Part shown: positions 20,521 to 58,771 of the stretch, piece after piece
Layout: every line of letters starts with the position of its first letter
Position numbering within the stretch: the first letter of the stretch is position 1
Virus record (IMG/VR): IMGVR_UViG_3300002597_000001
Location: 1 to 64,000 of that record
Source of the DNA: a virus
Lineage: Duplodnaviria; Caudoviricetes
DNA: 64,000 bases
Reading direction: 5' to 3' (one strand)
Position numbers and translations under genes: made by a program
Notes under the pieces: model-generated
Databases searched by the model: none
Seen by the model: the letters and a program-made list of their open reading frames with translations, nothing else
What the model was told of the DNA's origin: nothing

Positions 20521-20547
20521 ACCAAACCCCAATTTGGCCGTAGCCGA

Positions 20548-20580
20548 GCCGCTCATTCTGAAATGGAATGGGCGGTTTTA
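20548..20580 (+). terminator. Intrinsic terminator
   Basis: GCCGCTCATTC/GAATGGGCGGT stem followed by a T run. Confidence 0.6.
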
Positions 20581-20715
20581 CTATGCCCAAAAGGCAAATT
20601 GAAAACTGGAGGTATCCGAACATGGAAACTGTAATCACCATCGCCCTGGCTCTGGTATGGGCTGGAACCGCCTGTAAACTCACCGACAAAATCTATCACT
20701 GAGGAGGAATCTAAA

Positions 20716-20874
20716 ATGGGAGACGAAATCAGAAGAGTGAAGAAAGTCATGCGGGAATTCTGCGTCCCGAAATTTCTGGTGGACAGCGTGAACTGGAAAG
20801 CACTGAAAACAGAAATCGAAATCGAAAACCATATGCACGACCTGATTCAGACCTGGCTTGAAATCTGTGCATAA
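20716..20874 (+). CDS. Small hypothetical protein (52 aa)
   Basis: RBS GAGGAGG. Confidence 0.55.
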   Translation: MGDEIRRVKKVMREFCVPKFLVDSVNWKALKTEIEIENHMHDLIQTWLEICA

Positions 20875-20876
20875 AA

Positions 20877-20934
20877 TCTCATTCAGCCTATTGACAGGTG
20901 AATTTTAATCATGTTATAATCTCATCTGACCTAC
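20877..20934 (+). promoter_or_regulatory. sigmaA promoter flanked by two CTCAT-N4-CCTA boxes
   Basis: TTGACA 20891-18 bp-TATAAT 20915. Confidence 0.75.
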
Positions 20935-22280: not shown

Positions 22281-22321
22281 AAACTGAAAACCAAAACTGA
22301 ATTTGATAGGAGGAAATCACG

Positions 22322-25300
22322 ATGGAGCGAGTGATTTTTAGAACGGAGTACGACCCGTATATGAAAATGGAAAAGTATCTGGCTGTGTTCCCTGATGACC
22401 AGGCGTTTCCGGGAAGAATCGCTTATGTTCCGCTGTACTTCACGGGGCACGGCACAACATTTGAGTGCTATGACGAAATGGACTTGGATTACTACTACAG
22501 TGAAACCAAGATCGTACACAAGAACGACGAAATCGTAACGCGGCTTTTGAATTCGCTCCGAGACTTTTATGGGGATGAATTCCGGGCTGTGGAAAAGAGA
22601 TAATCAAATACGGATTTGAAAGGGGAAATCAATATGGGACGGATGACCATTCTGGAACGGGAATGCGAATGGCTACGCAAAAGAGCGTATCTAATTTGTT
22701 ACTCCAATGCCGACTGCAAAAAGGTGGACAAAATCATTGATGAAATTGCCGCCGGGAAGATCAACAAATCGAACTTGTATGACGAAATCAGGAAGATGAC
22801 ACGGCGAGTTACAAGCGACCATTCGATTAAGAGATGGCAGGTAATTGCTGAATGGTTCGACAGAGAACCGTGGATGATATGAAACGCCCATTTGGAAAGG
22901 AGATTCCTATGTACATGGATCGTGAAACCTATAACGAAATCATCGACATCATAGACGATGTCTTGAAGGCGGAGCACGAACGAGCTAACAGATTCATTGA
23001 ACTGAATCCGGCGTGGAAGGTGACTAGGCAACACGACGTGGATGTGTTCTATAATGCGGTGAGTGAGGTCGCAGACGAAATCAACAGGCGATTTCGCGTT
23101 GAATGAAACTTTAATTTGGAAAGGAGAATTCAAATCATGATCAACACGGATCTCTATAACAAAATCATCCGCAATGGAGGGACCTACGACACGAAGAAGT
23201 ACCGTTACAGAATTGATGACCGGGGCAGAGTGCTTCGGTGTAGGCTGGATTACCTAGACAGCCTGATGCCACTCCACTATGAGAGATGGCAACCGCACGA
23301 CAAAAAATATATGGATCTGTTTTGAAAGGAGAATTGAAAATGGATTACGGGTATATATTCCAAACAATTTGTGAGAACTTACCGCATGAACCTCAAGAGG
23401 GCAGAATTTGGACCCCCGACGAAGAAGAAATCCTTTGTCCAAATAAGGAGGCGGCGTATGCTATTTGTGATTTCCTTGGCGCGATGGCAGGGGAACCACA
23501 GATAGCAACGTGTGGGTATTACGATCCAGAGTATGATGCCAAACACGGACAAACAGACAGTCGAACCGGATTTTGGTATGTGAGTATGTGGTAAATGAAA
23601 CTTGGATTTGAACAACAAGGAGGAATTTGATTGGGTATTTTTATTAAAGGTCTGGAACTTCCCAAGAATGAGGATGGAACATTTGCCCATCTGCATGGCG
23701 ATATTCAAATTGCCTATGTTATGACGGTGTTTGCATATGATGATGGGCGTATTGAAGTACAACCTTGGAACTCTTCGCAATCAGAATATCGTTTTAAGGA
23801 GACATATCACGCCTTCGAGGTTAGCGATGTAACCAAACTTTAATTTGGAAAGGAAGTTGAGATATGAAAATCATCATTGACACACGTCCAGACGCGGACG
23901 GGAAATTCGTTTATGAAATTCGTAATGCTCGTGGAGGCATTGAGATTATGGGGCAGGGACGAACGATTGGGGAGGCCGCTAAAGAAGCAATAGTGGATTA
24001 CTATGATTGCTTCGCAGACGAGTTTGACACACCACTCAACCCATGTATGTACTAATAATACAAATCTGATTTTGGAGGTTCGACATATGGAAAAACACAA
24101 ATGGATTACAGGATTTCCTAAGATGTACCTGTTTGATATAAGCGCAGATGGAGGCAAAACATGGACGGCTCAGTGGCTTACCGAAGAGGAGGCCGACGAA
24201 CACCGGCGTGAACATGGATACATTCTGGAAGAACACGATGTGAAAAGGTTTCTTCTGACTATGGACGATATGTAAATAAAATGCGAATTTGGAAAGGAGT
24301 GTTGCAAAATGGTGGTGATGAAATTGGCGATGATCATTCTGTGCCTGTATGTTATCTTTAAGTGAAATCCAAACCCAACATCCAATACATATGGAAAGGA
24401 AAATGTAAAATGAAATTCTATCTGACTGACCTGAACAAGTACGTCGAGATCACGTGCCGCCCGTGGATTCCCGGCAGTGGTTACGGGCCGGATTGCTTCA
24501 GTGATCTGGAAGATAATCTTACGATTGACTACACGAAAGAGGAGGGCGGCGACGCCTGGATTATGCCAGCCGAGGACTATATGGAGATCGCCGAGTGGTG
24601 GGCAGAGGAAGTTCGCTGCATGAATGCCCATATTCAGGGTGAGATCTGCGACTACAGCGAATGCGACCCAAATGCGAACGAACTAATCCTGGATTACGAC
24701 CGTGTCTAAAATCCCTTTTATGGGACATTACATATGAGAGAATTTAAACGCAAAAGGATTTCAAAATACCAAAAACTGTGATATACTGAAACAAAAAGTG
24801 AAAGGAGAATTATTATGAATCGTTATAGCTACGAGGAACTGAGAAACGCCGCAAAGTCCGGCAAGAAAGCCGATATTAATGCGCTAGGCGAGTGGTTTTC
24901 CACTTATGGAACTGAATATTGGAATGGTGAATATTACGATGCGGACGGCATGGAGGTTTGGCCTGTCTACAAAGAAGTGAATGAAGATGAATTTGAGCTG
25001 GCCGGATACAGTCTGGATCGTCCTGAAGTGTGAGTGAACCATTAACAAGATTGAAGGGAGAATTATCATGGAGAATGCTTATTGGACGCTGGAAAGCTGG
25101 GGCGTAGATTACCCGCCCGAAAACGCCAACGAAATTATCGACGCCGCGAATGAGATGATTGATAAGTTTATGGCCGACAACCCAGACGCAGATGAACTTG
25201 AACTTGCAAACTACAGTGATACACTTTGGGATTATTACTGCACAAATAATAAACTGCCAGGATGACATGACACCGGAAGTCCAAAACTAAAATCGCCGCC

Positions 25301-26351: not shown

Positions 26352-26364
26352 AAGGAGAATTACT

Positions 26365-27303
26365 ATGACCAATGTCCTGTATCCCGATTTCAATTCCAAT
26401 TTCAAAATCAAAAACAGCGCCATGCAGGAACCCAATTTCAAAATCGTTTCCACCAAAATGGACGTAGAGCCGCTGGAATGGAAATCTCAGAAAGCTACCC
26501 CAATCAAGAGCAAGGACGACATTGCCATGGTCAGCAATTATCTGCTGGATCGCGGCCTCCGCGGAGACGAAAAGGCCATACGCAACAACCTGATGTTTGT
26601 GTGTGGGATCAACTTTGGCCTTCGATGCTCCGACCTGACCCAGCTTCGCTTCGGACACCTGCTTCGCCCGGACGGCAGCGTAAAGGATGCGATTTGGATC
26701 CGGGAGATCAAAACCGAGCGTAAGCGCGGGGCGAATGCAAAAACGGTTTTGGAGAGCGGCGAGATCAAATACAAGCTGAAGGACCCGAGGAAGGTGTTCG
26801 TCACGGATTCTGTCCGTCAGGCCCTGATGCTCTACTGTGCCGGGAGGGAAATCGATCTGAACGACTTCCTGTTTCCGGGACAAAAAGATGGAAAGCCATT
26901 GAGCTATGACGCGGTGTACGACATTTTTACAAAGCTATTAAGTTGGAATCGGAAAAAGAAAAAGCCCGGTGTCCTGGCGTCCAAACTCTCCCGCCCTGTG
27001 CATGCCAGCACCCATATGCTCCGCAAGACTTTCGCCTATCACTTCATTATGAGTGCCCCGGAACGAAATCGGGCGGTCGAATATCTTCAGATCTGCATGG
27101 GCCACTCCAGTCAGCTTACCACCCTGCGCTATGCCGGTATCACGGATGATGAGATTCAAGACGTGGTTCTGAATATGAATCTTGGCGGCGAAGCCATGGA
27201 TGTTCATACCTCGGAGATCCTTTCCGGCAAAAATGAAATCAACGAGGACGACGTGGTCTATCTGGAAGTGTTCGCGGATGACGATGACGAAGATGCTTGC
27301 TGA
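26365..27303 (+). CDS. Tyrosine recombinase (catalytically complete, short N-terminus)
   Basis: Arg in NFGLRCSDL, Lys in EIKT, HxxR in THMLRKTF, His and Tyr in MGHSSQLTTLRY. Confidence 0.92.
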   Translation: MTNVLYPDFNSNFKIKNSAMQEPNFKIVSTKMDVEPLEWKSQKATPIKSKDDIAMVSNYLLDRGLRGDEKAIRNNLMFVCGINFGLRCSDLTQLRFGHLLRPDGSVKDAIWIREIKTERKRGANAKTVLESGEIKYKLKDPRKVFVTDSVRQALMLYCAGREIDLNDFLFPGQKDGKPLSYDAVYDIFTKLLSWNRKKKKPGVLASKLSRPVHASTHMLRKTFAYHFIMSAPERNRAVEYLQICMGHSSQLTTLRYAGITDDEIQDVVLNMNLGGEAMDVHTSEILSGKNEINEDDVVYLEVFADDDDEDAC

Positions 27304-29394
27304 GGAGGTGCTTTGTGGTATTAACAAAAAACTTATGGGCATATCAGTCACCGTGGAAACTGTATGCCGAATTCAAATTCGGTTCTGGGTTTTACTTCTA
27401 CGGAGATTCCGAATCGGAATGTCTGCATGAAGCAGTGCTAATGCAGGACTTCCATGGTGACATCACCGCCCTCATATGGATCACGGACGATTACTATACC
27501 GACGGCCAGCACATTGTTCGGAAGAGGAGAGATGAAACATGAGTTCGGTCAAGATTATTACTTCAAAAAGACAGACAGATTTTGAGTACCGGGTTTCCCG
27601 GTTTCTCAATTCTGTTTTGGAATCATATGGCAAGATTCGCTCTATCCATTACAGCGCTGGGTGGAATGGGGCCGAAGGTATTTACACTGCGATGATCATT
27701 TATGAAGAGGAGGACCTCCATGGTGAATAAAACGAAAATCAAAAACCCGGACGATGCAGTTTGCGTTCTTGCTTTGGACCCACACACCCGCCTAAGTGTG
27801 ACATCTACGAGCTGCGACCGTAAGGATGCCGCTCATTACGCCAAGTACTACAGTTCCATTGGTTACCGCGTCAAAACTCTGGAGTACGGTGAGGAACTGG
27901 GCGCCTATCTGGAACGGGAATCCCGTGTCCGGCAAATGGAAATTCGAAATCTGAATTTGGCTATGGCGGAAGGAGGAATTTGACATGGCAAAACGCACAC
28001 TGCATGAATGGGGAACCGTAGATGGGAAGGACTGGGAGCTGTACAGGGAACGCGGACACTACTTTTTGTATGTGAACGGTGAGTTTTATTGCACATGTGA
28101 ATCGATTAGAGAGTTTAAAGAGGAACTGATCGGTCTGTCCGACTGCTAATTTGAAAGGAGATTATTTTATATGATTATTGAAAAAGATACTAAGATGCTG
28201 ATCCACAGCACCACTCGCGGCAAGTTCTATGCCAAAGCCCGCCGCACATTCTCTCTGGATGATGATATGTATCCTGTCATCATCACTGATCCGCTGGAAT
28301 CTCACGCTGTGAGGAATCAGGAGGCGGATCTCCGTGCCGAGATGTCCAAAATCGAATTGCTGGAGATGGAATTGGAAACAGATCCAGAATCCGAGCCTGT
28401 CGTGGACTGCGATGTGGTGACACAGCCCATGGCTGTGGAAATTGAACCGGAAGAGGAGATGCGTCCGTTCGTGGGAATCAAAATGGATTCCGGTAAATAA
28501 AATAGTTCTTTTATGGAGGTGTTGATTACTTGTCGGAAACATATGTACATTACGGCAGTCAAAAATATGACCCTGAGATATTCCAGCCAATACGCAACAT
28601 CAATTCATTCAGTAAACCTCATGGTGGCTTGTGGGCATCCAGAGATAACGCTGAGTATGGTTGGCGCGACTGGTGCAAAGACAATGATTACGGAACGATT
28701 GTAGAAGAGAATTCATTTCGGTTCATTGTTTCTGATACAGCCAATATCCTGTATCTAAAAACAGAAAACGACTTGCTTAACCTTCCATTGCAAAGAGATT
28801 CAAGACCGGCTTACCAGTGGTATTTTCCCGACTTTGAAAAGCTACTGGCCGATGGTATAGACGCTGTGGAGGTTATAGATATAGATCAACTTTATTACCC
28901 TTTATACGGATGGGACTGTGAAAGTATCGTGGTAATGAACCCGGATATTATAATCCCGTTGGAAAAATGAAGTTACTCTTTGATAGGGGAGATTTATTAT
29001 GAGTTCTATTCTTTTTAGGCCGACGTGTGAAAAGTGTGGGACTGTGATTTGGGATCACATTGACTGCAAGACATTTTCAGAAACGGTGGATCGTTTCAGC
29101 ACCCGTCATTATTGTATTGAGCCATATCAATGCATGGAATGTGGCGCAATTTTCGACAATGTTGTAATGCCAACGCGATTGCCTTTTGATAATTCCCGTC
29201 ACAATAACTTTTGGGAGGAAGTGTAAATGATACTCAAAATTATCGCAGCAATTGTAATTGCTTTGCAAATATGGGTCATGGGGCTTTTTGTAATCGGGTA
29301 TTCCAAGGATGACAATATCGCAGCCGCGTCTGCATACATTGTTGCTATTTGTGTCGTTGCTGTTCTGGGCGGCTACGCGATAATTGCGATGTAA
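27297..29394 (+). CDS. Small accessory genes (27297-27542, 27539-27730, 27720-27983, 28171-28500, 28530-28970, 28999-29226, and others)
   Basis: Co-oriented ORFs with RBSs. Confidence 0.6.
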
Positions 29395-29423
29395 ATGAAA
29401 TAAAACAGGACTTTGGCAAAAGA

Positions 29424-29446
29424 AATCCCTCCCCAAACGGGGAGGG
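29424..29446. terminator. Hairpin between convergent genes
   Basis: TCCCTCCCC-AAAC-GGGGAGGGA. Confidence 0.6.
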
Positions 29447-29454
29447 AGAGTCAT

Positions 29455-33177: not shown

Positions 33178-33186
33178 AACAAAAAA

Positions 33187-33229
33187 CCTCATAGAGCCTG
33201 TTGACTGAACGTTGTACATATGATAGAAT
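33187..33229 (+). promoter_or_regulatory. sigmaA promoter with CTCAT-N4-CCT box
   Basis: TTGACT 33201-17-TAGAAT. Confidence 0.7.
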
Positions 33230-33251: not shown

Positions 33252-34175
33252 ATGTACAACGAAGAAACCAAGGAGAAGTATCTGTCTGCCAAGGAAGCTG
33301 ACAATCACAAGGGCAGAAACCGTCAGACAGTCTTCTTTAACAAGATTGCGCCGTATGAGGAAAAGCTCGGCAAGGATCTTGGCCAGATGACCAAAGAGGA
33401 AATCATTGGTGGGCTCCAGTTTATCGGCAGCTCCTATTCTACGATTCAGGTACAGTCCGTATTTGCAAGGCAGTATCTCCTGTGGTATGACGAGGCGGTT
33501 GCTCCGGTCCGCAGAAGCACGACGGAGTTTTCGTGGGACGATGTGGACCTGACTGAAACCTATCGGCGTGATTACATCCGTGACATCACGCAGATTGGAG
33601 AGGATTGGAGCCAATGCGACCCCATCAACGGAGACTATATCCAGCCATATCTCGTCCTGATCTGGTATGGATTTGCACCGAAGGATTTTCTGAAGCTAAA
33701 GAAAACTGAAGTGGAAATCGGCAAAGATCGAGTGACGCTGACATTTGACGGGATACGCTATACAATCGAGGATTCTGTTGTAGCTCACACGCTGAGGGAT
33801 TATGATGCTTTTACAGAATACCGAGCGGAGAACTCCATGGTGACATGGCACAAGCCGGATACGGAGTTGTTCTTCTACAACAAAGTGTCCGAGGATAGCG
33901 TGAAGGTGAAGAAAACAGTCACCTCTATTGACGCTTCTAGTCGCCTCCAGTGGTATAAGAAGCATAGTATCTATGGTTCCGCTCGCCCTTATGATTACGC
34001 TTCTGTCAGATTGTCTGGGTTGTATCACAGGGTGATTGAACTGCAAGAGCAGGGCGCCACACAGAAAGAGATTGAAACGCTTATGGATTTCTATGGCGTG
34101 TCTAGCAAGAGCAAAGCTATGCGGGCTATCTTTCAGAAGTCGTTTGAGTCCTATCGGAAGGCATTCGGTCTATAA
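33252..34175 (+). CDS. MrpR/YopR-like repressor (degenerate tyrosine-recombinase fold)
   Basis: MYNEE.KEKYL...F....YEE.LGKDL...T.EE N-terminus, LIWYG, VRLSG; catalytic residues not evident. Confidence 0.6.
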   Translation: MYNEETKEKYLSAKEADNHKGRNRQTVFFNKIAPYEEKLGKDLGQMTKEEIIGGLQFIGSSYSTIQVQSVFARQYLLWYDEAVAPVRRSTTEFSWDDVDLTETYRRDYIRDITQIGEDWSQCDPINGDYIQPYLVLIWYGFAPKDFLKLKKTEVEIGKDRVTLTFDGIRYTIEDSVVAHTLRDYDAFTEYRAENSMVTWHKPDTELFFYNKVSEDSVKVKKTVTSIDASSRLQWYKKHSIYGSARPYDYASVRLSGLYHRVIELQEQGATQKEIETLMDFYGVSSKSKAMRAIFQKSFESYRKAFGL

Positions 34176-35141: not shown

Positions 35142-35918
35142 ATGGCAGATACAGTAACAACAACTGCTACATACGATGGTGATTTTGTAACAGGAATGGA
35201 CGTGATTATGGGGTCACTCGATGTGGGTGCAATCCCACTTTCTGCCCCTGCAACCGAGGAGCAGAAGAAGAAACTTGCCGAGGTTTGGGATGAACTCTAC
35301 AAAGTAGACGTTAGCGATTACACCGAAACCAAGAACAATCTAACCTATCTTCCGTGGTCAGACGCAATGACCGAAGTGTACAAGCGTTACCCTGACATGG
35401 AATATAACATTCTTTGGTTCGACGGGGATCCCTATCTGTATCGCGAAGGGCTTGGATATATGGTTTTCACCACTGTCACTATCGAAGGGAAAACCAAAAT
35501 TATGTGGCTCCCGGTTCTGGATTACAGAAACCAGATCCTAAAGAATCCCACATGGTACGAGATCAATAAATCCCTGATGCGTTGCCTGGTCAAAAACTTT
35601 GCGGCATTTGGTCTCGGCATGTACATCTATAAGAAGGACAGCCTCCCGGAGGATGCCTTGGAAGCCCAGAAGCAAGAGGCGGCTGCGGCTCAGGAATTGG
35701 AAGCCAAGCGCAAAGAGATTACCGAGCTGGGCAAGGATGCCATTGGCAAAAAGAAAATCACCGGCCCGAAACTGCGCGAGCTGATCACTAGTTTGAACCC
35801 GGCGGGCGGTGCTCCAGGCGATATCGAGGATGTCGAAACGGCAGAAGCTGTCATTGCGGCCATTAAGAAGTTGAAGGCGCCGCCAAAGAAGAAAGAGGAG
35901 GTATCCGATGAAAAGTAA
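35142..35918 (+). CDS. sak: Sak/Rad52-like single-strand annealing protein (DUF1071)
   Basis: LTYLPW..A, MWLPVLD.RN, INKSLMRCLVK..A.FGLG.YIY. Confidence 0.85.
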   Translation: MADTVTTTATYDGDFVTGMDVIMGSLDVGAIPLSAPATEEQKKKLAEVWDELYKVDVSDYTETKNNLTYLPWSDAMTEVYKRYPDMEYNILWFDGDPYLYREGLGYMVFTTVTIEGKTKIMWLPVLDYRNQILKNPTWYEINKSLMRCLVKNFAAFGLGMYIYKKDSLPEDALEAQKQEAAAAQELEAKRKEITELGKDAIGKKKITGPKLRELITSLNPAGGAPGDIEDVETAEAVIAAIKKLKAPPKKKEEVSDEK

Positions 35919-37445: not shown

Positions 37446-37908
37446 ATGGACAACAGCAACAAGATCATCCTGGACCTCTGCGGAGGAACAGGAAGTTGGT
37501 CCCGGCCATGGAAGCTTGCCGGGTATGATGTGCGGAATATCACACTGCCAGACTATGATGTGCTCACCTACGAGCCGCCTGACAACGTCTACGGCATACT
37601 CGCTGCCCCCCCCCATGCACGGAGTTTAGTGTACTGAACTGCATTGCGGAGAACCGACACCGAGACTTTGATTCTGGTATGGAAATTGTGAACGCAAGAA
37701 GTATGAGAAGTGGGAAGAGGTTCCCGACAAGTTGCCGCTCTATACAAGACCCGGCAGAGGGAAACCAAATTTTGCTTACCTACATAAAAGCGCATGGGAG
37801 AATGTCCCACAGCTCCAGTGGCACAAGCCGGAGACAGATGCCGAGTTCCGAGCCATGACACCGCCCGGTTTCGCTTGGGCGTTTTATGAAGCAAACAAAG
37901 ACAGATAA
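37446..37908 (+). pseudogene. DNA methyltransferase-like gene with C9 slip and probable internal deletion
   Basis: ILDLCGGTGSWS, AAPP|CTEFS split at C9 (37606-37614), no ENP; the C-terminal RAMTPPGFA lies in a different frame from CTEFS. Confidence 0.7.
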
Positions 37909-37939
37909 CAAACTACGATTTGATGAGGAGCAAATTTAG

Positions 37940-39189: not shown

Positions 39190-40114
39190 AGGCGTTGTTA
39201 CAGACGGCATTCTTGGAGTATACAGGAATGGGAATTATAGTGTAATGATCTGTTCTGACGGCACCAAGATTCGCTTTGCGGATGTAGACGAATTCCGCCC
39301 GACACACCCCGAGAGTATTGACCTTCTGATTACAAAATCCTGTGACCTCGGGTGTCCTATGTGTCATGAGGATGCCAGACCGGACGGGAAGCACGGAGAT
39401 ATCCTGAATCTTCCGTTCCTTGACACGATGCTTCCTCATACTGAAATCGCCATCGGCGGCGGCAACCCTCTGGAGCATCCTGACTTGAATGAATTCCTTG
39501 TCTCGTTGCGGGATAGACGGTTAATTGCCAACATGACCGTGAATCAAAAGCATTTCATGATGCCAGAGAATCAGAAGCGGCTGCACGATTTTGTTCATAA
39601 CGGTTTGCTTTACGGTATTGGTGTCTCCCTGACCGAAGGAAGTTCTGACCTGATAGAAGCTCTGGCTGAGTTTCCGAATGCTGTGGTCCACGTCATTGAA
39701 GGATACACTCCAATCGAAGAAATAAGGAAACTTTATGGAACCGGTGTAAAGATCTTGATTCTTGGATACAAAACCTTCCGTCGCGGCGGCGCCTTGTATT
39801 TAAACGATCCAAGCATTGCACTGAATCAGACGCGGTGGAATGATGAATACATCGGAGAAATTGTGAACGATGGGGAGTTTGCGGCAGTCAGCTTCGACAA
39901 TCTGGCGATCCGTCATTTGAATCTCAAAGACCGGATGGGCGATTCCGAGTGGGCTAAATTCTATATGGGCGACGATGGTCAGTTCACCATGTACGTTGAT
40001 GCGGTAAACCGGCAGTTCTCTAAGAACTCAACAAGCTCTACGAGACACGCTATGCTGGATGATATCAAAGATATGTTCGCGGTTGTCAAAACCAAAAGAG
40101 TGAATGAAAACTAA
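39167..40114 (+). CDS. Radical SAM protein
   Basis: CDLGCPMC (CxxxCxxC), GGGNPL. Confidence 0.9.
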   Translation: MGTMVTTKGVVTDGILGVYRNGNYSVMICSDGTKIRFADVDEFRPTHPESIDLLITKSCDLGCPMCHEDARPDGKHGDILNLPFLDTMLPHTEIAIGGGNPLEHPDLNEFLVSLRDRRLIANMTVNQKHFMMPENQKRLHDFVHNGLLYGIGVSLTEGSSDLIEALAEFPNAVVHVIEGYTPIEEIRKLYGTGVKILILGYKTFRRGGALYLNDPSIALNQTRWNDEYIGEIVNDGEFAAVSFDNLAIRHLNLKDRMGDSEWAKFYMGDDGQFTMYVDAVNRQFSKNSTSSTRHAMLDDIKDMFAVVKTKRVNEN

Positions 40115-40137
40115 GTTTGGTGTGAGGAGGTGAAGAC

Positions 40138-41526: not shown

Positions 41527-44500
41527 ATGCCGACTGGATATACAGCGGGAATTGAAGAAGGGAAGATTACTTCCGGGGCTGAGTTTCTTATGCTATGTGC
41601 TAGGGGTTTTGGAGCTTGTATTGATATGAGGGACGAACCGCTGTCTAAGCCCATCCCTGACAAGTTTCAGCCTAGTGGCTATTACGCAGAAAGTCTGCTT
41701 CGTGCCCAGAGAAAACTCGCAGAATATAAAGCTATGACTCCGACCGAAATACATGAGCAAAACGAGGCTGAATACCAGAAGCGAGTAGAGCAAGAGAAAG
41801 CTCGTCAAGAGAAATATGCGGAGATGTTCTCCAAATATCAAAGCGTCCGTGACGAAGTTGAGCGATGGGTGCCTCCAACGGCTGACCACGATGGGCTTAA
41901 AAAATTCGCACTAGAACAGATTGATATGTGCATGCCTGATTTTAGACCGAGACAAGAGAATATTGAACGTATTTCAGATGATGAGTGGATCACTCAGCGC
42001 ATCGATATGTATTCAAGAGATATTCCGTACTACGAGGAGAGAATCGAAGAAGAGCGAAAGAACTATGAGTCTAAGAATAAATGGATTCGTGATCTTAGAA
42101 AAAGTCTTAACATGAAATAGTCTTTTGATAGGAGGATGGTATGCAACTAATTCCAAACGACGCCAGAGGGCCTAAAGAGCCTGATCGATGAAATTGTCGA
42201 GATCTCTATTAAGGCAAGGGGCTGCCTGCGTGAAGGAAGACTATTTGCAGACAACACAATCTGATGAAACATAATTTTGGTGGAGGACATAATGAATTCA
42301 GAAGAAATGGCCGTTATTGAATTTCTTGAGGATGTATATACTGAGGCACACGATGAAGGTGACTGGGTGATGCAGATCAGACTTGCGAGAGCAATCGCCG
42401 CATTCAAAAGCAATCCAGGGGATGCACAGGAGGCTGTGTTCACGGGTGATTTCATCGAAAAATACTACGATGGAGTCTTAGATAAAACGTAACTTTGGTG
42501 AGGTGGAGTAATGAACCTGTATTGGAGAATTTGGTGGTTGCTACGTGATCGGCACATGCGGAAGTATGCCAAACAGCCGCCGTCGATTCAATACGACAGG
42601 CGGTATCACACACATGTCGCCACGGTAAACCCGTCTGAAGATGGCTATATTGAGTATGTTTTGGGAGAGATTACGCAGGGCGGCTTGGTTTATCATTTTA
42701 TGGTTGCTGGAATCGGGCCATTAGGACTGGTGCATATGCATTCGTTTGATGCAGTGCTGAAAATCGCATACGAGGAAGCCGACACGTTCCAGATCCCAGA
42801 TGATTGCCTTGATGAATACAGCCAACAAGAGCTTGAGTTTCTCAAAGCAGTTGTACAGCGGGGGAAATTGGATATGGCAAATTATAAATCAGGAGAACAG
42901 CGATGATGAATGTGTGGAAGGGGATGTTTCTCCGGTGGAGGTATCCGTCTAATTGGTTGGAAAACATCAGGCAAATCCCACGGTCAATTAGATGGAGTTA
43001 CCAGAGAATTACTCGTGGGTTTGCAGATGTTGATGTGTTCAATCTCGATTGTTATCTTTCTGGTGTCATCATTGGCACTTTAAACCATCTTGCCGACCAC
43101 CACTTCGGAGTGCCTTACAGTTTCAAAGACAGTCCGGACGAATGGACAGCCTGGCTCCGAGAGACCGCAAACAAATTTGAAGAAGCTAATAAAATTGAAG
43201 AAGATTCATACTCTGTTGAATTTGAGCAAGTCAAAGCAGAACATGATAAAGCTGCGGGTTTGCGTAAAGAAGGACTTGAGCGGCTCTCGGAATACTGGGG
43301 ATGTCTATGGGATTGACGTAGTTAGAGGTGTGTAATGACAAAAGAAGAATTTTTCATAGAGTTTGGAATGCTGCGGCAGAGGCTGGCTAAGGCAATTAAA
43401 TCCACGCTTGCAGAAGACCCGTATTGCAAATCTTACGAGGGCACATGGGAATTGCTTGTCGGATATCCCAGCTACTTTGATGACAAGACAGGAACTGCCC
43501 AGCCTGAATTCTATAGAATCTCCCTTCACTGTTACGTCCTTGGCCCGTATAGACATTATGACTGGGACGGCAGGAGTTGGGGTGAAGCTTTCGAGCAATG
43601 CAAAGCACAGGTTGAAGAATGGATTAAACCATACGAGGAGGATGCAGATGCAATATAAAAAGGGTGACAAGTTCACCATTGAAATCACAGATGTCATGAC
43701 CGGAGAGGATGGCAAGACCGTCTACCGGATGAATGACTTCTCCAGTCTGGTGTTTGATGATAAGGGACTGGATCGGCTGGAGAAAAAGGTTGTGGAGCCG
43801 GAGAAGAAAAGCCCGTTTGAGCGAGCTATTGGGGAGCATTATTGGAATATAGGTGGCAATGGAGCTGTAAACCAAGAGTATGACAATGAAACAGAGTACG
43901 AAGACGAAGCACTCAAGGTTGCCAACTACTGCACAGACAGATCCATGATGAAGCAACGCGCACTACATGAAACTCTGAACCGTCTGCTGTGGCGGTATTC
44001 GGAGGAGCATGGTGGAGATCCTGAGTGGGACGGGGAAGCATACCATTGGTATATATATTGTCCTTCAACTGGTGGGCTATTATATACGAACGTTTGGAGC
44101 GCCAAGATTCCTGGGATTGTTTATTTCGGTTCTAAGCAAATTGCAGAGTCAGCCATTAACGACATCATAAAGCCGTTCTTAGCCGACCACCCAGAATTCG
44201 TATGGTGAGGTGTCCATTGTGGTATGTGTAAGCTACGATTGCCCAAGGTACGTAGACTGTGCAAGAACAGAAGGATACGGACAAGTCGAGGCGTTTGCAA
44301 CACATGGCTATGGGTATATTTCGGCAGAAGGAATCGTCGAGCACAATGATTGTGGACCGCTTGGAGGTTATGCGATGTTTAAACCAAAACCAAAGAATAT
44401 GCCCGATTTGAGGGAGGCTGAGTGGATAGATGATCCACACGGCAGCACATACAGAGACGGAAGAAGAATTTTTGTCAAGGTGTGCTCAAAATGCGGCGGC

Positions 44501-45556
44501 GCAAATCCGTTCAACATAGTTGGAGAACCGTACTATCCGCAATACTGCTCCGATTGCGGCAGGGCAATGAGAAACAGCCCTGAACTGACGATGAAAGAGA
44601 TATTTGCAGGAGGTGGTTGCGATAGACAGGCTTACAATTCCTAACTGGGATTATAACGATATGTCATTGGGGACGATTGGGCCATGCCTAGCTCGCCTCG
44701 CAGAATACGAAGATATTGGACTGGAGCCGGATAGAGTTAGGCGATTGGAGCTTGCGTTGCTCTCAATGGTTTACCAGTATTGCAAGGTCGATGATGCTAA
44801 TGGAGACTATTTGAGCCACCGATGGATGGAGGCCGGAGAGGAAGCGTTCGACGTGCTTGAGATAACGAACTTCTCTCCGGCAGAGGATGTTTGGAAGCGA
44901 ATCGAGGAGGCCGAAGCGGCGCTGGGAGGTGATACCAATGTATGAGCTGTTATTCAGATCCAGCGACGGTTCTGAGCGTATGATAGCGCAAGTGGAAAAT
45001 GAGGGCAAAGCAACAGAATATATCCACGCTTTCTGCGAGGAGCGAGACTTTAAAATCTACTACACAAGAATGTGGACGGAAGAAGACGGGCGAAAGTGGT
45101 TCGACGTAGGGAGTCACACGGAGTTCTTCATCTTGAGTCCTATACAAGACGTTGTTGGAGGTGGCGAGGATGAACAAAAGTAATCTCTGGTTGGCAATTG
45201 CCGGATACATAGTCGCATTGATGTATATTGGGTTGGGAATCCTGCAGGTCGTAGCTGATGAATTCCAGTATGGTTTTATCTTTGCAGTCGCGTGGATTGT
45301 TATTGGCTCAGTTTGGATGCGGCTTTATAAAAAATACAAAACAGATGTTTGATGGAGGCGTAGGAAGATGAACACATGGAAAGTATTTTTAGCAAACGCA
45401 TTGGAGAATGTCGCTATCGCCATCTGTATAACTTGTGCAGCTATTCATTTTGAAAAATGGAGACTGCTTTGGTTCTTGATAATCATACTGCTTAATTCCG
45501 TCACGACGACAAACTATAAGGTATCAAAAGTCAGAGGAGGTGATGAACATCAGTAA
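41527..45556 (+). CDS. Accessory hypothetical genes (41527-42120, 42292-42492, 42511-42906, 42903-43316, 43335-43658, 43648-44208, 44210-44644, 44622-44945, 44938-45183, 45170-45352, 45368-45556)
   Basis: Co-oriented, tightly packed, RBSs present. Confidence 0.65.
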
Positions 45557-47242: not shown

Positions 47243-48108
47243 GACACGGAGAATCAAAAACAAAGCTCCACAATGTATGGAATTCAATGATCATGAGGTG
47301 TCATAACCCAAATTCCACTGCTTATGCGCACTACGGAGGAAGGGGTATATCCGTATGTGAGGAGTGGAGAGAATATTTGCCATTTGCTGAATGGGCTAAA
47401 TCGAACGGATATCACGAAGGGTTAACAATAGATCGTATAGATGCAAATGGCGATTATTGCCCAGAAAACTGTAGGTGGGCCACGTTTAAAGAACAGGCAA
47501 ATAACAAAACTAATAATCGATACATCACATATTTAGGTGAAACCAAGACGATGTCTCAGTGGAGCGAAATAGTAGGCGTAGATCCAGGAACTATAGCTTT
47601 TAGGCTAGATAATGGTTGGAGCGTTGAAAAAGCTTTGACAACCACACCTCAACACACAGATATAACGTATCGTGGCAAAACAATGTCTGCCGAAGCTTGG
47701 GGGAAAGAAATTGGAATCTCCCCAACAACATTGAGGGGTAGAATGTTACTGGGGTGGAGCGATGATGCTATCATCGAGACTCCTCCAATGTTCAAACAAG
47801 AGGTTGAATACGGCGGGCAGGAAAAACAGGTGTCAGCATGGGCTAGAGCTGTGGGAATGAATCCACAGACACTTTGGAGCAGATTGCGCAAAGGGACCAG
47901 CCTTGAAATTGCGCTTACAACTCCTGTGCAACCCACAACGCACGTCCTCACTACGTCGGACGGAGAATCCCACACGGTTACTGAGTGGAGTAAGATCAGT
48001 AATGTAGACCGCCATACTATTCGAAACAGGCTCAAACGAGGGTGGACTATTGACGAAGCTGTAAGAACGCCTGGGAGAAAGTCAAAAGATGGTGAATCGG
48101 ATGAATAA
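47236..48108 (+). CDS. HNH-type putative homing endonuclease with four C-terminal repeats
   Basis: YGGRGI.VC.EW, TIDRID.NG.Y.PENCRWAT. Confidence 0.8.
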   Translation: MVRHGESKTKLHNVWNSMIMRCHNPNSTAYAHYGGRGISVCEEWREYLPFAEWAKSNGYHEGLTIDRIDANGDYCPENCRWATFKEQANNKTNNRYITYLGETKTMSQWSEIVGVDPGTIAFRLDNGWSVEKALTTTPQHTDITYRGKTMSAEAWGKEIGISPTTLRGRMLLGWSDDAIIETPPMFKQEVEYGGQEKQVSAWARAVGMNPQTLWSRLRKGTSLEIALTTPVQPTTHVLTTSDGESHTVTEWSKISNVDRHTIRNRLKRGWTIDEAVRTPGRKSKDGESDE

Positions 48109-48859
48109 TACAAAAGAATGTTATTCGTTTAGTCGCCTTTCGTCTTTCGAAAATTGCCCATATGGATACTACGAAAGATATATAGGACATAAACCAAGTC
48201 AGAACAACAGCTTCGCCGAATTTGGATCGTATTGTCATTCACTGTTTGAAGCCTATGCCAAAGGAGAATATGAGCTCGACAGTTTAGCTGATATCTATGA
48301 GTTCGGATACTCGGATGCCATTACATGCAAATGGCCTAACAATCGTTTTGTTGACCTTGAATCTAGCTACTACAACGCCGGGAAGAAATTCTTTGAGGAG
48401 TGGGAGGGGTATGACGACTCCTACCACATCCTCGGAGTGGAAGAGGAGTTCACGATTCAGATAGCCGATTTCGATATGACAGGATTCCTTGACCTTGTAT
48501 ACGAAAGAGACTCCAAACTGATCATCCGGGACTACAAATCCAAGGGCGAGATTAAGAAGACGGAGCAACAGCACTACGCTCGGCAACTCTACATATATTC
48601 TGCCTACGTCAAGGAGAAATACGGGAGGTTCCCAGACAAGATCGAGTTCTTCTGCTTCAGAAAAAACCACGTCTTGGAGATTCCGTTCTGTATGGAAGAT
48701 TATTGCGAGGCTATCCAGTGGGCAATTGATATGGTGGCGAAGATACGGAATGAATGGGAGTTTAACAAGACGCCATCGCAATTTTTCTGCTTGAATTTAT
48801 GCAATGTCCGTGGCGAATGTCCCTACGGAAAGTATTGGAGGTGGATGAAAAATAAATAG
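48101..48859 (+). CDS. PD-(D/E)XK exonuclease (RecB/Cas4-like)
   Basis: SFSRL..F..CP, G...H, D...DYKS, QL.IY, C-terminal Cys cluster. Confidence 0.85.
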   Translation: MNNTKECYSFSRLSSFENCPYGYYERYIGHKPSQNNSFAEFGSYCHSLFEAYAKGEYELDSLADIYEFGYSDAITCKWPNNRFVDLESSYYNAGKKFFEEWEGYDDSYHILGVEEEFTIQIADFDMTGFLDLVYERDSKLIIRDYKSKGEIKKTEQQHYARQLYIYSAYVKEKYGRFPDKIEFFCFRKNHVLEIPFCMEDYCEAIQWAIDMVAKIRNEWEFNKTPSQFFCLNLCNVRGECPYGKYWRWMKNK

Positions 48860-49666: not shown

Positions 49667-49696
49667 GTATGAAAACGATGTTTGGTGGGTGGTAAT

Positions 49697-50086
49697 TTGA
49701 GGACGAATCTTCTCGAAGAAACAAAAGCAACGCTGGCCGAGTACAACCTTGATCTCAAGGATGTTAGCTGGGTTGGAATTGGTTTGTACCGCATCCCGTG
49801 GGAGGTATTTCGTCGGGTTGCTGACCAGTTCTATGACAATGGTTATGGCGGTGCTGAGGTGAACGAAAACCTAATCGTGTGCGGCGATGATTGGTGGCTT
49901 GAACGCCATGAATATGACGGATCTGAATGGTGGGAGTATAAGACGATGCCAGTGAAACCCGAGTTAGAGCTGGAACGCCCAGAACTACATATATTCCCAA
50001 GCTTCCACCGTAGATTCTATTTTAATTACGATTCTCCGAATGCCGAGATGGAGTTCAAATCCATCTGCTCAGATGAAGATGAATAA
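49697..50086 (+). CDS. Hypothetical protein
   Basis: YDNGYG...WWLER.EYDGSEWW; bounded by AAA-N6-TTTG sites. Confidence 0.75.
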   Translation: MRTNLLEETKATLAEYNLDLKDVSWVGIGLYRIPWEVFRRVADQFYDNGYGGAEVNENLIVCGDDWWLERHEYDGSEWWEYKTMPVKPELELERPELHIFPSFHRRFYFNYDSPNAEMEFKSICSDEDE

Positions 50087-50114
50087 TAAAAGACTTATTT
50101 GATAAAGGAGATGA

Positions 50115-53883: not shown

Positions 53884-55423
53884 ATGACCATTTGTTCGGG
53901 CAAATATGAGCGCCATCCGTCTTATACGGTAGCCGACATTCTCACCGGAACGCCCCCAATCGATCTCATAATGGTCCGCACTAACGACCATAATGGCGGT
54001 GACATGTTGTTTGGTTACTGCCAGTGGGACGGGGAGAGGTTGATCCCGCTTGACGGAGATGATTACCGCATGGATGAATGCGTTATGAAACATGAGTATC
54101 CTTTTTGCGGACCAGTCGATCTGATTTACTGGATTCACTCTAACTGGACTGTGGAGGAAGAAACATGATTATTATTGAGACGTGCCCAAGGTGTGGTGGA
54201 GATTTACGAGACGAGGTAATTGCAACATACCCTCCGGTCCCGAGAAAGTCCTGCCCAAAATGCGGCTGGTTTTGGGAAGGTGTGAGGGAACGGGTGATGA
54301 GAGTACCATTCAGAGAACCAGGTGTTCCTTATATGGAGGCTCCTACAGCGATATCTAGCCTAAATGTATCAACGCCTCCGTGTGCGACCTGCGGATCAAA
54401 TCCGAAGAATGGCGGCTCTGGGAACTGTCATTGTATTCTTGGGACACCGACTATTACATAAAAGGAGGTCAGATATGGCTATAATTTTGAAAGAAAAGAG
54501 TATGAATGAGTGTCTCTGCCAGAAATGCGGCAGCACGATTGGATATACGGATGACGATATATGTATGGCAAAAGACGACTATGGAAAGACCGGGCAGGGA
54601 CTAGAATGCCCGAAGTGTGGCAGTATTATCTTGGTCAAAGAAATGGCACAGGATGAGTGGCCGGAAGCCTTTTATCACTTCGGAGACGGGGTTCATCTTA
54701 CCGACCAGGAAATTCAGCGATATGTTGACGAATGCATACGCAAGTTGCGTAACGGCGAGACAGATTATACATATGTTGGATCCGGTGACACATTCGTTAT
54801 GGCAAGTTGGGATGGTGGGGATATCGTCGTTCGTGTTTGCCGTGACTATTACGAGGCGTATGTATATGGGACTTGAGTGGAATGTTTGGGTGGGGAACTG
54901 GAATCGCAAGACCGTTGAACCGCATAACATTTTCGATCATGGCGGGTTTTCGGAAGACTGCCGCAAGATATATAACAAATACGGCAAAGGAAGGAACCCC
55001 GACAAGGGGTCGTTCCTCGAAGAAATCCGCCAGAGCTTAATGTATTACTATTGGAGCAAGTCAGAGTGGGAGATCGTATTACAGCATTGGCCTCCGTATT
55101 CAGACGGAGACGGGGAAAAGATCGATGTATATCAGCAAGTTAGGATGAACTGGAATCAGTTCTGCGAATACCTGTGGGACCACCGGTCCAGTCTAAACTA
55201 TTTTTAAGGAGAGATAATGAGACTCTTTGAAATCGAAGCGGACTACCGCCCGAACAATCAGGACAAGCCGCGCTATTATGTGCTGGCAAAATCCAAGAGT
55301 GATGCGAAGCGTAAGTTTAAGAACCGTATAACATGGCTTGACATTTATGGTTGCGAAGAAGTCACGGACGAAGCTCAGGCCACCTATATTTATGATCACC
55401 CAGAGAAATATATCCTGTGCTAG
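53884..55423 (+). CDS. Five hypothetical proteins (53884-54168, 54165-54461, 54475-54876, 54866-55207, 55217-55423)
   Basis: Packed co-oriented ORFs with RBSs, two with Zn ribbons. Confidence 0.65.
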
Positions 55424-55428
55424 GAGGA

Positions 55429-55962
55429 ATGCAAGTGAATCGAGTTGGAAAGTTTAGCAAAGTTTCATACGATCAGTGGGCGGCGGCGATTAGATCGCAG
55501 ACCGACGCCATTACCGAGGATGCAATTCTCGACCTGTATCACCAGATTAAGTTGCCTCAGCGAGCAACGGCAGGAAGCGCCGGTTATGATATATACTCTC
55601 CGATTTGGGTAAGTCTGGAGTGTGGAGAATCTATCAAAATCCCGACCGGCATTCGCTGTGAGATGGACGAAGGTTGGGTGCTGACGATCTATCCAAGAAG
55701 CGGACTTGGAACAAAGCATAGATTTGTGCCGGACAACCTTGTTGGAGTTGTGGATGAGGATTATTTTTATTCCGACAACGAGGGGCATATCTGGTGCATG
55801 ATGACCTATAACGGTCATGAAGATCGCGAGAATAGAACACTGGAGATCAATCGCGGCGACGCTATTGCTCAGGCAATCTTCCTGCCGTATGGAATCACGA
55901 AAGATGATAACGCCACCGGCGTTCGCAACGGCGGGTTCGGAAGTACTGGAGGTGCCCAGTGA
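55429..55962 (+). CDS. dut: dUTPase (trimeric)
   Basis: SAGYD, PRSG, GVVD.DY, AQ, R.GGFGSTG. Confidence 0.93.
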   Translation: MQVNRVGKFSKVSYDQWAAAIRSQTDAITEDAILDLYHQIKLPQRATAGSAGYDIYSPIWVSLECGESIKIPTGIRCEMDEGWVLTIYPRSGLGTKHRFVPDNLVGVVDEDYFYSDNEGHIWCMMTYNGHEDRENRTLEINRGDAIAQAIFLPYGITKDDNATGVRNGGFGSTGGAQ

Positions 55963-56642
55963 CAAGAGTTGAAATACACAAGCAGTTCTGCGATGGGCTT
56001 TCTGATTTGTATGCCGCGAAGAATGCGGACTATGGTGACAGCTATGCCAAACTCCGGGCTAAATATCCTGAGAGCATCTGCATCAGACTTGAGGACAAGC
56101 TATCGCGGCTAGAGCAGTTGATGAAGCCGGGATATGAGGCACAGATAAAAGATGAGAGTATCTGCGACACTCTTCGAGATCTTGCCAACTACAGCCTCAT
56201 GGAACTCACTGAGCGGGAATATGAGAAGCAGAATTGCAATATTGCTCAGGATGATAATCAGGAAACAGATTGGGATGAATTTGTTCCTGTCTGGTCGCTC
56301 GATCAGGATGGTGTCACTGAGAGATACAACATCAGCGGCGGGCTGAATGATATTGAGCTGACTTATGACAAAGACACTGATATGTATGAGTTGTGGGTGG
56401 AGACCCTCTACGACTTCGAGAATAAAAAGTCCATCATCCGCTGGCTGGACAACATGGAAGTTGCGCTGTGGAAATATGTAAATGCGGCGGAGCCTGACGT
56501 TACATATAAAATCACTCTGGAAGACGCCCTCAATATCTCAAACACATTTACGGGGAAGACCATGCATGAGTGTGCTGAAAAGTTTTCGTTCCGCGTGAGC
56601 TGCATTGTAGACTTCTTGGAGGGCAACGATAGTGATTTGTGA
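55959..56642 (+). CDS. DUF1599-like (nucleotide-modification-associated) domain protein with C-terminal extension
   Basis: KNADYGDSY...R..DK..R...ES..DTL.DLANY. Confidence 0.75.
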   Translation: MTRVEIHKQFCDGLSDLYAAKNADYGDSYAKLRAKYPESICIRLEDKLSRLEQLMKPGYEAQIKDESICDTLRDLANYSLMELTEREYEKQNCNIAQDDNQETDWDEFVPVWSLDQDGVTERYNISGGLNDIELTYDKDTDMYELWVETLYDFENKKSIIRWLDNMEVALWKYVNAAEPDVTYKITLEDALNISNTFTGKTMHECAEKFSFRVSCIVDFLEGNDSDL

Positions 56643-58771
56643 TAGATGCGATGGCGGTGTTTATCTTGACGGATTTGCAGTAACTAAATGCAAGGTCTGC
56701 GGTTACAAAATTGTGACCCCGCATACACCGGGTGGGAGGGTTTGCCCCTCCTGCTCGGTAACGCAGGGGCTGTGTGAACAGTGCGGCGAGAAACTAGAGG
56801 AGGTGCCTGATGGCGAAAACAATTTATCTGCCAGACGGTGAGAGCTGGACGGTGTTTGGAGAAATCGATGCGGAGCGCAGCCTACGGCGAATCATCCAAG
56901 AATACTTGGGTGATGATTGCGTCGAACTGTTGGACGATGTGATTGCAGAGGCCTTCGAGCGTGGTGCTTGTTATGAGCCGGAATAAAAGACCAGTTTGGT
57001 GAGGTGAACTATGGCAAAACATAAGAATTGCCCGAACTGTGCGGCTCCATATGACCCGGCTCTGAGCAAGTGTCCATACTGCGGGACGATCTACTTTGAT
57101 ATGTCTGTGATTGACTTCGATCATCATGAGCCATTCTGGCTGAAGATCCGTGTGGATGGGTGCGAGATCACCCAATTCGTTGTGCCAGAGATGGGGGAGA
57201 TGACAATCAGTCATAGTCCTGTTTACTGTGATTGGTCCGGGCAGAGGAAGATGGTGTTTGGTGGTCCCCCAGATGTGACCACGGACATTTCGTTCCATGC
57301 GGTTGCTGCACCAGACACAAATATAATGGCTACAGTAACCAGAATTGGAGGTACATAAATGAGAAATATAATTCCTTTTGATCTGACTCAGAAAACCGAG
57401 GAGCTGCGGCAACTCATTCTCAACAACCCAGATCTGCCCATCGTGGTGCTGGCAGGTGAAGAGGCCAACTGCGGAGGAGATTACTATTGGATGTATTGCT
57501 CCAGCATTAGCTTTCGTATTACAGAAATCCTGGATTGCGAGACCCCATATAGTGACTGCGTATGTTCAGACAGAGATAGCTTCGAGGAGGACTTCGAGGA
57601 GTGGCTCTGGGATGAGATGGCCACAGAACTGAGAGATCGCGGCATCTCTGATGCAGAGCCAAGCGAGGATGAGTTTCAGGCGCGGCTAAAAGAAGAGAAG
57701 GAGAGGTACGGGCCGTATTGGAAGAAGGTGATTGCTATCTATGCAGACAACTAAGTGGATCAATGTTGACGATAGATTGCCAGATCCGCCGGAGGTGAAG
57801 TAATGGCAGTAGCCTTTATCGCTGGGATATTAGTTGGAGGGGGTTTGTGCTCTGTTTTCTGGATTATCCAAAAACAAAAGCAAAGCACGACAGACATGCT
57901 GGAACGCACACATTTTGTTGAGATACAGGAAGCACCTGTGGTTACGCTTATGGCTGAATCGGCTTTTGCTATAGAGGACATGGATCGGTATGGCGAGGAT
58001 ACAGTTAGTAGGTTTGCCCGAGAGAGCGTTATGAGAAAAATAACAGATGATCTGGAGAATTATGTGAGATTTGAAACCTACGAAGACCCGTGTGCGCATA
58101 CTGTAACACTTCGCGGATCGATACGCGTTGCACAACCACAGATATAAAACCCGAATTTGATGGGAGGCAAAATGGACAAAGTTAAAGTTATCACCGTCAC
58201 TAAGCAGGAACGAATGCACATGTTTTATTGTGACGAGTGCGGAGAATTTATACAACACCAGCTCGAATATGATGACGGATGGACTCCTGAGCCTTCTGGT
58301 TTCGAAGCGAAGATATGCATCGGGAAGACGTGGTATGTATACAAGAAAAGGCACCTATGTGAAGAATGCAGAGAGCATGCTTGGATTAATCTTGTAGAAA
58401 AGCTACAAGCAATAGGATTCGAGGTGGAAGATTAGATGGGTTTTGAGAATGCAACCCCGTTGTCTGTTGTGGCTTATGACAGCGAGACGGGAGAACGAGT
58501 GATGGGATTTGATTTGGCGAGTTGTCCAGACATTACTTGCGAGACGCAGACAGTTCCAAGCGATTATATCTCAGGACTAAATGAATTGTCTGGTGGATTC
58601 ACAATGACCATTACATATCCGAAATTTTCTCGCAAGCGATTTATAAAGAAGCTGATGGGAATTGGAGTTCCTAGAAATGCGGCAAATAAATATGCGAGAT
58701 ACTGCGCTGAAACCAGAAGTCCATACGGGCGGCAATGGAACCGGATTTGTTGGATGGGTATATTTGGATAA
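56632..58771 (+). CDS. Hypothetical proteins (56632-56841, 57011-57358, 57359-57754, 57803-58147, 58172-58435, 58436-58771)
   Basis: Co-oriented ORFs with RBSs. Confidence 0.6.

Follow-up and report, generated by a model that had tools for sequence, protein, structure and literature searches.

Promoter-early stem-loops (PeSLs) are mobile regulatory cassettes of T4-type phages (PMC2839356, PMC4122927). How single accessory genes for defence, counter-defence or host takeover are shuffled without damage to the operon that carries them is poorly understood outside that group of phages. The DNA analysed here, a window of 64,000 nt, is the first 64 kb of IMG/VR record IMGVR_UViG_3300002597_000001, a contig of 108,778 bp with source contig JGI 3300003523; its end is a repeat of its start, and it therefore represents a complete, circularly permuted phage genome. 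The phage is a temperate rumen Bacillota phage of ∼109 kb. In its accessory operons, a short bipartite motif with the core AAA-N6-TTTG forms, together with the Shine-Dalgarno sequence (SD) that follows it, the standard short spacer from the end of one open reading frame (ORF) to the next gene. Comparison with relatives supports the exchange of modules at the sites: module boundaries coincide with the motif, and the genes between sites are replaced, lost or gained from one relative to another. The reading favoured here, held at about even confidence, is that of a PeSL-like junction element, a putative RNA-level intercistronic signal whose arms and SD would serve as short shared stretches for exchange.

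AAA-N6-TTTG occurs 47 times in the window, compared with 15.7 ± 4.4 times in dinucleotide-preserving shuffles. The excess is specific to spacing and strand: within the early region, a spacer of 6 nt gives 31 sense-strand matches (∼8 of them chance intragenic matches), other spacings give 2 to 16, the antisense strand 10 and the late region 6 to 7. The refined pattern AYNAAA-N6-TTTGR sharpens the contrast, with 21 forward copies and 1 reverse copy in the window against 0.42 expected (maximum of 4 in 300 local shuffles), and the same arms at spacings of 3 to 5 and 7 to 10 nt yield 0 or 1 match. The spacing is therefore rigid and the site asymmetric. Alignment of 17 clear sites defines an 18-nt consensus, A-T-R-AAA, c-n-t-n-a-a, TTTG-R-W, with no conservation to the left past the 6 positions of the arm, an SD 0 to 8 nt after the motif and a start codon 12 to 20 nt after TTTG. 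These results bear out, and strengthen, much of a sequence-only reading of the same DNA, which had described the sites as those of a candidate gene-cassette array: all 14 of its quoted examples lie where it had placed them, the enrichment over shuffled background that it had proposed to test is seen, and the single polarity, the nearness to the upstream stop and the next ribosome-binding site, and the absence of sites from the structural operon and the primase/dnaE junction are confirmed. Its picture of a 16-bp imperfect inverted repeat with 5-bp arms around a 6-bp core holds for the strict 6-nt spacer but not for the arms, which pair as A3/T3 only.

The motif is a feature of gene junctions. 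It lies at −50 to −8 from the start codon in 17 of 98 early genes and 1 of 62 late genes (mean of 0.31 for shuffled upstream segments) and is present in 14 of the 24 gaps of 13 to 45 nt, with three more at one mismatch. Sites lie inside accessory operons driven by host promoters, between an ORF end and the next SD, and the gene-junction survey of the window found none in first-cistron leaders or at overlapping junctions. The in-frame upstream stop falls anywhere from −15 to +11 relative to AAA, and several ORFs end within N6 or the right arm. The earlier statement that the site contains or abuts the stop codon is right as to closeness, but the TGA or TAA of the left arm is usually not the stop, and the candidate explanation ‘ATR = stop codon’ is ruled out by these offsets. 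Three sites have no SD after them: site 20521, site 29400, which a terminator follows, and, in relatives, the CCTAAA site ahead of a tRNA-like segment. No RNA fold was found (z about 0 against shuffles in 8 of 8 sites), which rules out a hairpin at the sites, and neither the sites nor the tRNA-like segment matched any Rfam family. Two further readings, an IHF-type consensus and extended pairing of TTTG with the anti-SD, do not fit.

Strict spacing, arm asymmetry and strand lock together imply that a sequence-specific factor, still putative, reads the element. Such a factor might dock on double-stranded DNA, for example one of the helix-turn-helix (Cro/CI-type, HTH_3) proteins encoded at 29455-30137 or the HU-like protein of the phage. 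Near-palindromic arms at exactly 6-nt spacing do recall 434-type operators (4-6-bp half-sites, 6-bp spacer). However, position 3 is R where symmetry demands C, only 1 of the 22 motif copies reads the same on both strands, and orientation always follows transcription; ∼20 operators within operons and far from promoters would moreover have no obvious use, which makes DNA docking a highly improbable account.

Perfect host-type promoters (TTGACA, 17-18 nt, TGnTATAAT) occur only at operon heads (18500, 20891, 25898, 32759, 33201 and 46735), and a host-type promoter scan of the window gave no match at motif sites. With sigma-A promoters confined to operon heads, the motif sites are therefore intercistronic. 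Host-type promoters are scarce in the 37-57 kb region, as would be expected if the motif were itself a short promoter, read by a phage polymerase or by a phage-redirected host polymerase, so that each module had its own promoter as with PeSLs. A suitable enzyme is at hand: the 910-aa protein encoded at 11382-14114 (− strand) matches PF05183 (two-barrel RdRP family) and is therefore a YonO-type single-chain RNA polymerase, as in Bacillus prophage SPbeta. The promoter that YonO recognises is not known (PMC5467207), and the G of TTTG is the first base of the tRNA-like segment in relatives. Even so, the motif is hardly credible as a promoter. YonO of SPbeta transcribes late genes from one start site (PMC5467207), whereas the late strand here has the motif at a single gene; a start at TTTG would leave 0 to 8 nt ahead of the SD, and perfect host promoters already serve the operons that hold sites. 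The polymerase gene is next to a gene for a DEAD-box helicase (15194-16753).

A general translation-initiation enhancer does not fit, because the motif is missing from first cistrons and some sites lack an SD. The only thing common to all sites is that an upstream ORF ends there within an operon, and this favours an intercistronic signal at the RNA level. The putative reader would then act on the unstructured transcript, as a signal for processing or for the release and restart of translation.

Close relatives of the phage are rare, but the few that were found share the motif and allow the sites to be followed through gene turnover. G001 (also L191; IMG/VR 3300011005_000139, 63 kb), found by motif search, is syntenic with the phage and mosaic, with 65-95% identity in patches; it contains 11 forward and 2 reverse motif copies, compared with 0 and 0 for a control pattern. 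A third relative, L204, comes from JGI metagenomes and spans window positions 45.0-50.2 kb. Exact-protein look-up with the product of the 197-aa gene (41527-42120) retrieved the short rumen contigs L082, L083, L084 and L197-L203, in which the identical protein is encoded beside quite different genes; L082 has the motif at nearly each gene junction (8 sites in 4.2 kb). Other searches added little. NrdD relatives in IMG/VR (80 loci) have nrdD alone in common and show no spacing peak. Queries with the primase, the exonuclease and a 275-aa protein returned only G001 in IMG/VR and L204 in JGI metagenomes, and GTDB genomes yielded nothing of use. Searches of IMG/VR with exact DNA patterns gave chiefly chance matches, with several copies in G001 only, and exact-protein look-ups with five further genes of the window or L082 returned their own contig or nothing.

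The 197-aa gene is the clearest exchanged module. It is 98.5% identical in the window, L082, L083, L084 and L197, its flanks are unrelated, and two sites bound it in all five contexts. Homology begins at the left edge of site 41492 and ends 2-8 nt past site 42112, downstream of which three different contexts start 3-6 nt after TTTG. Between sites 49669 (N6 ACGATG) and 50086 (GACTTA) is a slot that the window, G001 and L204 each fill with an unrelated sequence, with both sites kept. At 45336, a 21-nt island with N6 CAGATG is identical in L204 and G001, and both flanks differ. Across 51 non-redundant instances, 30 pairs share an identical N6, compared with 1.5 expected from position frequencies. 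Eight cores are collinear between the window and G001 and three between the window and L082; within one genome each N6 is unique, CTTTAA (twice) excepted, and in at least six cores an identical N6 is surrounded by unrelated sequence on both sides. Among the sites with any G001 homology, 7 of 8 are one-sided and one (56983) is two-sided, or 6 of 7 one-sided if 53882, a start codon and not a motif site, is dropped. Duplicated cores also bracket genes: in L082, two CCTAAA-type sites (624 and 892) enclose one extra gene, and in the window sites 23103 and 23832 share N6 CTTTAA and the next 7 nt, so that two copies bracket a 3-gene block. Finally, the window lacks the tRNA-like segment that relatives carry between CCTAAA and CAAAAA sites; the loss is precise from site to site, and the N6 cores of the sites that it brought together disagree at 2 of 6 positions. 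The 197-aa gene in unrelated contexts, the three-way slot and the excess of shared N6 support that part of the earlier proposal by which the units between sites behave as exchangeable modules.

Homology breaks fall around the motif, no more than ∼4 nt to the left and ∼9 nt to the right of AAA-N6-TTTG. At 29400, 50086 and 58144 the N6 stays linked to the DNA downstream, at 37907 and 42112 to the gene upstream, and the break at 49669 falls after the SD. Where the flanks of a shared core are unrelated, identity extends 0-4 nt leftward and 0-9 nt rightward; right-hand runs of at least 4 nt make up 41% of pairs versus 6.5% in the background, so that the SD contains many of the breaks on the right. 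The 62-aa gene at 45368-45556 is missing from L204, with the joint in the GGAGG(T)G shared by two SDs. The sequence-only reading had proposed to ask, from aligned relatives, whether breakpoints fall inside the 6-bp cores; they are scattered, from the left arm to 9 nt beyond TTTG, within the SD.

This scatter bears directly on the mechanism proposed earlier, an integron-like array worked by a recombinase, which is not supported. The candidate enzyme, a 312-aa tyrosine recombinase, matches the general family PF00589 only and scores 42, 35 and 23 bits against the NCBIfam models XerA/integron-integrase, XerC and XerD, whose cut-offs are 220-335; it is not an integron-type IntI. The sites, at 18 nt, show A3/T3 pairing only and, in the eight folded, nothing beyond shuffled sequence, unlike attC. 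In place of one fixed crossover, breaks are seen at either arm or as far as 9 nt inside the SD, and about half of the motif-less junctions break too (see below). Solved-structure searches gave generic integrase matches only, and a search for long inverted repeats that would make a better recombinase site found none near either recombinase gene. Homologues of the 312-aa recombinase keep the same synteny in other rumen contigs, which are short; no enrichment of sites was found beside the recombinase genes or in these short contigs.

A different recombinase mechanism would dispense with integron features. The motif copies could be heterospecific sites whose arms are bound by a phage tyrosine recombinase and whose N6 is the overlap, so that only sites with the same N6 recombine; single modules would then be swapped in register between co-infecting relatives with gene order kept, a natural form of cassette exchange. 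The layout invites this view, with an A-tract and a T-tract as near-inverted arms around a strict 6-nt spacer and all sites as direct repeats. So do the N6 cores, unique within a genome yet conserved and collinear across genomes, the islands that persist where both flanks are replaced, the same-N6 duplicates around the inserted gene of L082 and the 3-gene block of the window, the precise loss of the tRNA-like segment, the sites without a following SD, and the two extra small recombinases among the arrays, with the same synteny in relative L329. Both the mechanism and the cassette exchange that would follow from it are nevertheless improbable. The arms are 6 bp only and left-hand linkers vary outside them; crossovers lie off the N6 borders, and in 6 of 10 cores the identity linked to N6 continues for 4-9 nt, into the SD; the segment loss joined non-identical N6; a single gene was deleted through SD-SD homology; and the motif-less breaks and the lack of site enrichment near recombinases count against it as well.

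The motif could also be purely regulatory, acting as RNA or DNA, with breaks coinciding because it fills the intergenic space and selection keeps recombinants joined between genes. Gaps of 15-41 nt do consist of motif plus SD, and other intergenic positions at conserved junctions are conserved too (85-95%). Among the motif-less junctions with homology on at least one side, ∼16 of 31 also show one-sided breaks, overlapping ATGA-type junctions included. What makes regulation alone unlikely is the set of at least six positions, collinear between genomes, at which an identical N6 has both flanks unrelated: repeated two-sided breaks around islands of 13-25 nt would be required. Same-core duplicates that bracket inserted genes count against it too.

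The preferred reading, a PeSL-like junction element that is both signal and exchange stretch, accommodates the shared islands and the breaks within the SD. The same arms plus SD at each junction would offer short shared stretches at which co-infecting relatives may recombine. Several observations weigh against it. Breaks at motif-less junctions are about as frequent, so that the motif may simply coincide with gene borders and its part in causing recombination is putative; the shared islands are short for homologous recombination; sites without an SD and motif-free first-cistron leaders do not suit a plain translation-initiation enhancer as its function; and only about four independent relatives underlie the comparison, many of whose parts are interdependent. 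The agents of such exchange could be the annealing protein Sak and the Cas4-like exonuclease, both encoded by the phage; alternatively, illegitimate joining could supply recombinants among which selection acts. Rad52-type recombinases have been reported to drive relaxed recombination and mosaicism (PMC3945230), and Sak is a plausible agent of exchange here.

The genome is divided by strand. Genes for accessory functions, recombination, nucleotide metabolism and replication occupy the + strand from 19.2 to 68.2 kb, and the remainder, structural, lies on the − strand. DnaE is 44% identical to that of a gut ‘Bacteriophage sp.’ record and 40% to those of Clostridioides phages. The phage further encodes NrdD, several free-standing HNH endonucleases and two small tyrosine-recombinase-type proteins. 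Some of the indels between relatives are free-standing HNH genes. HNH-type homing-endonuclease genes stand among the early genes at 47236-48108, 36095-36685 and 52459-53295; G001 lacks the first, and the break points fall at junctions where genes overlap. At 31278-32171 there is a short TnpB-like gene (OrfB_IS605 / Cas12f1-like). The PemK-type toxin gene and the MrpR-like recombinase gene (32983-34175) recur as a pair in L329, which suggests a plasmid-like maintenance module.

Further features adjoin individual sites. The tRNA-like segment is ORF-less and lies between two sites at L083:150-300, G001 (L191):9150-9290, L082:905-1180 and L197:1573-1730. Its 5' end resembles an acceptor strand with a tRNA-Leu-like D-arm, its 3' end a T-arm with the complementary acceptor strand, and the middle is variable; neither ARAGORN nor Rfam called it. 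Four tandem paralogues of a small zinc-ribbon-type protein (40138-41502) share a C-terminal coding end that runs into the motif; the gene is single-copy in L197 and G001, so copy number varies. A mini-ORF of 18 codons (24309-24365), strongly hydrophobic, stands directly behind a motif site and SD. Site 29400 is followed not by an SD but by a hairpin (29426-29447), the terminator of convergent − strand genes. The stem of this hairpin is kept in G001 (about 1240-1262), where the 4-nt loop is GTTT, the reverse complement of the AAAC found in the window. Sites and associated features are collected in Table 1.

Table 1. Motif sites and associated features of the window, in order of position.
Feature	Coordinates	Strand	Remarks
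Junction site ACCAAA-CCCCAA-TTTGG	20521..20537	+	stop of the gene ending at 20520 at −6; no SD; next gene 20716
Perfect host-type promoter	20891..20920	+	TTGACA-18-TATAAT with TG; heads operon with sites 22290-24292
Junction site, N6 ACTGAA	22290..22306	+	precedes gene 22322-22603
Junction site ATCAAA-TACGGA-TTTGA	22603..22619	+	sole fully palindromic copy; precedes gene 22634-22882
Junction site, N6 CGCCCA	22879..22895	+	left-arm TGA is the true stop; precedes gene 22909-23106
Junction site, N6 CTTTAA	23103..23119	+	precedes gene 23137-23325; N6 plus next 7 nt repeated at 23832
Junction site, N6 CTTGGA	23595..23611	+	precedes gene 23631-23843
Junction site ACCAAA-CTTTAA-TTTGG	23832..23848	+	second CTTTAA core; precedes gene 23864-24055
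Junction site, variant left arm, TACAAA-TCTGAT-TTTGG	24059..24075	+	precedes gene 24087-24275
Junction site, N6 TGCGAA	24276..24292	+	followed by SD and hydrophobic mini-ORF at 24309
312-aa tyrosine recombinase, candidate enzyme	26365..27303	+	PF00589, phrog_216
Weaker copy TCGAAA-TCTGAA-TTTGG	27944..27960	+	within upstream ORF end; gene 27985 begins 25 nt further on
One-mismatch copy (right arm TTTT)	28497..28513	+	precedes gene 28530
One-mismatch copies	28967-28983; 38223-38239	+	
Site, N6 CAGGAC	29400..29416	+	after last + strand gene of operon; G001 homology begins at left edge
307-aa recombinase-like protein, MrpR core-binding domain	33252..34175	+	92% identical in G001; adjoins PemK-type toxin gene
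7-nt-spaced copy	35016-35032	+	precedes tRNA-Leu (35039-35116)
Sak (Rad52-type) single-strand annealing protein	35142..35918	+	candidate driver of short-homology exchange
Junction site AACAAA-CTACGA-TTTGA	37907..37923	+	precedes gene 37940-38233; G001 homology stops at right edge
Junction site, N6 ACTAAG	40104..40120	+	stop TAA within N6; precedes gene 40138
Junction site, N6 CCTAAA	41492..41508	+	stop within N6; left boundary of 197-aa cassette
197-aa gene (phrog_8905, cassette; function not assigned)	41527..42120	+	98.5% identical in L082, L083, L084, L197
Junction site, N6 TAGTCT	42112..42128	+	right boundary of 197-aa cassette
Junction site, N6 CATAAT	42264..42280	+	precedes gene 42292; core also in L082, both flanks unrelated
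Junction site, N6 CGTAAC	42482..42498	+	precedes gene 42511; core at syntenic G001 place, both flanks unrelated
Degenerate site ATGAAA-GAGATA-TTTGC	44591..44607	+	intact same-N6 site at syntenic place in G001
Junction site ACAAAA-CAGATG-TTTGA	45336..45352	+	precedes gene 45368
PD-(D/E)XK / Cas4-like exonuclease	48089..48859	+	likely Sak partner
Junction site, N6 ACGATG	49669..49685	+	left border of slot with three alternatives
Junction site, N6 GACTTA	50086..50102	+	right border of same slot as 49669; G001 and L204 homology begins at left edge
Junction site, N6 GACCAG	56983..56999	+	precedes gene 57011; both sides conserved in G001 (97%; N6 differs by 1 nt)
Junction site, N6 CCCGAA	58144..58160	+	precedes gene 58172; G001 homology begins at left edge

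Set against known systems, the array is like an integron in that single genes without promoters follow one another in the same orientation, with a recurring site at the boundaries of each. The attC sites of integrons, however, are imperfect palindromes of 57-141 nt that fold as single strands and have one fixed crossover, whereas the sites here are 18 nt and unstructured, their breaks vary, and an IntI-type integrase, attI and Pc are lacking. Heterospecific lox and FRT spacer variants, the basis of the laboratory method of recombinase-mediated cassette exchange, combine constant arms with differing spacers, like recombining with like, and a system of this kind would explain N6 cores that are unique yet conserved. 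They belong to an engineered system with 13-bp arms, and the crossover positions observed here fit them poorly; no counterpart is known from natural phages. The pdif (dif) modules of Acinetobacter plasmids (PMC6449649) are accessory modules flanked by short sites with a 6-bp spacer and shuffled between replicons, but they have 11-bp XerC and XerD arms in alternating orientation, unlike the 6 conserved positions per arm and the 21 forward and 1 reverse copies described here.

The likeness to PeSLs extends further. In both cases, short conserved elements in one orientation lie between small, mostly ORFan genes in plastic regions, and insertions, deletions and replacements end at the elements, although here motif-less junctions break too; recombination between elements has been proposed for PeSLs. 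The differences concern the nature of the signal. PeSLs comprise a sigma-70 promoter and a terminator hairpin over tens of nucleotides, whereas the element of this Bacillota phage is 18 nt long, contains neither, and lies within operons between stop and SD as a strictly spaced bipartite motif with a position-specific 6-nt core. It is very small and easily recognised, and its cores stay collinear despite gene turnover, which offers a concrete, testable way into the study of how large Bacillota phages exchange modules. Should the sites be read by a recombinase, they would constitute a natural system of cassette exchange that is new, and for phages a gene-cassette system of a new kind; if not, they would extend the PeSL principle to another phage lineage and another type of signal.

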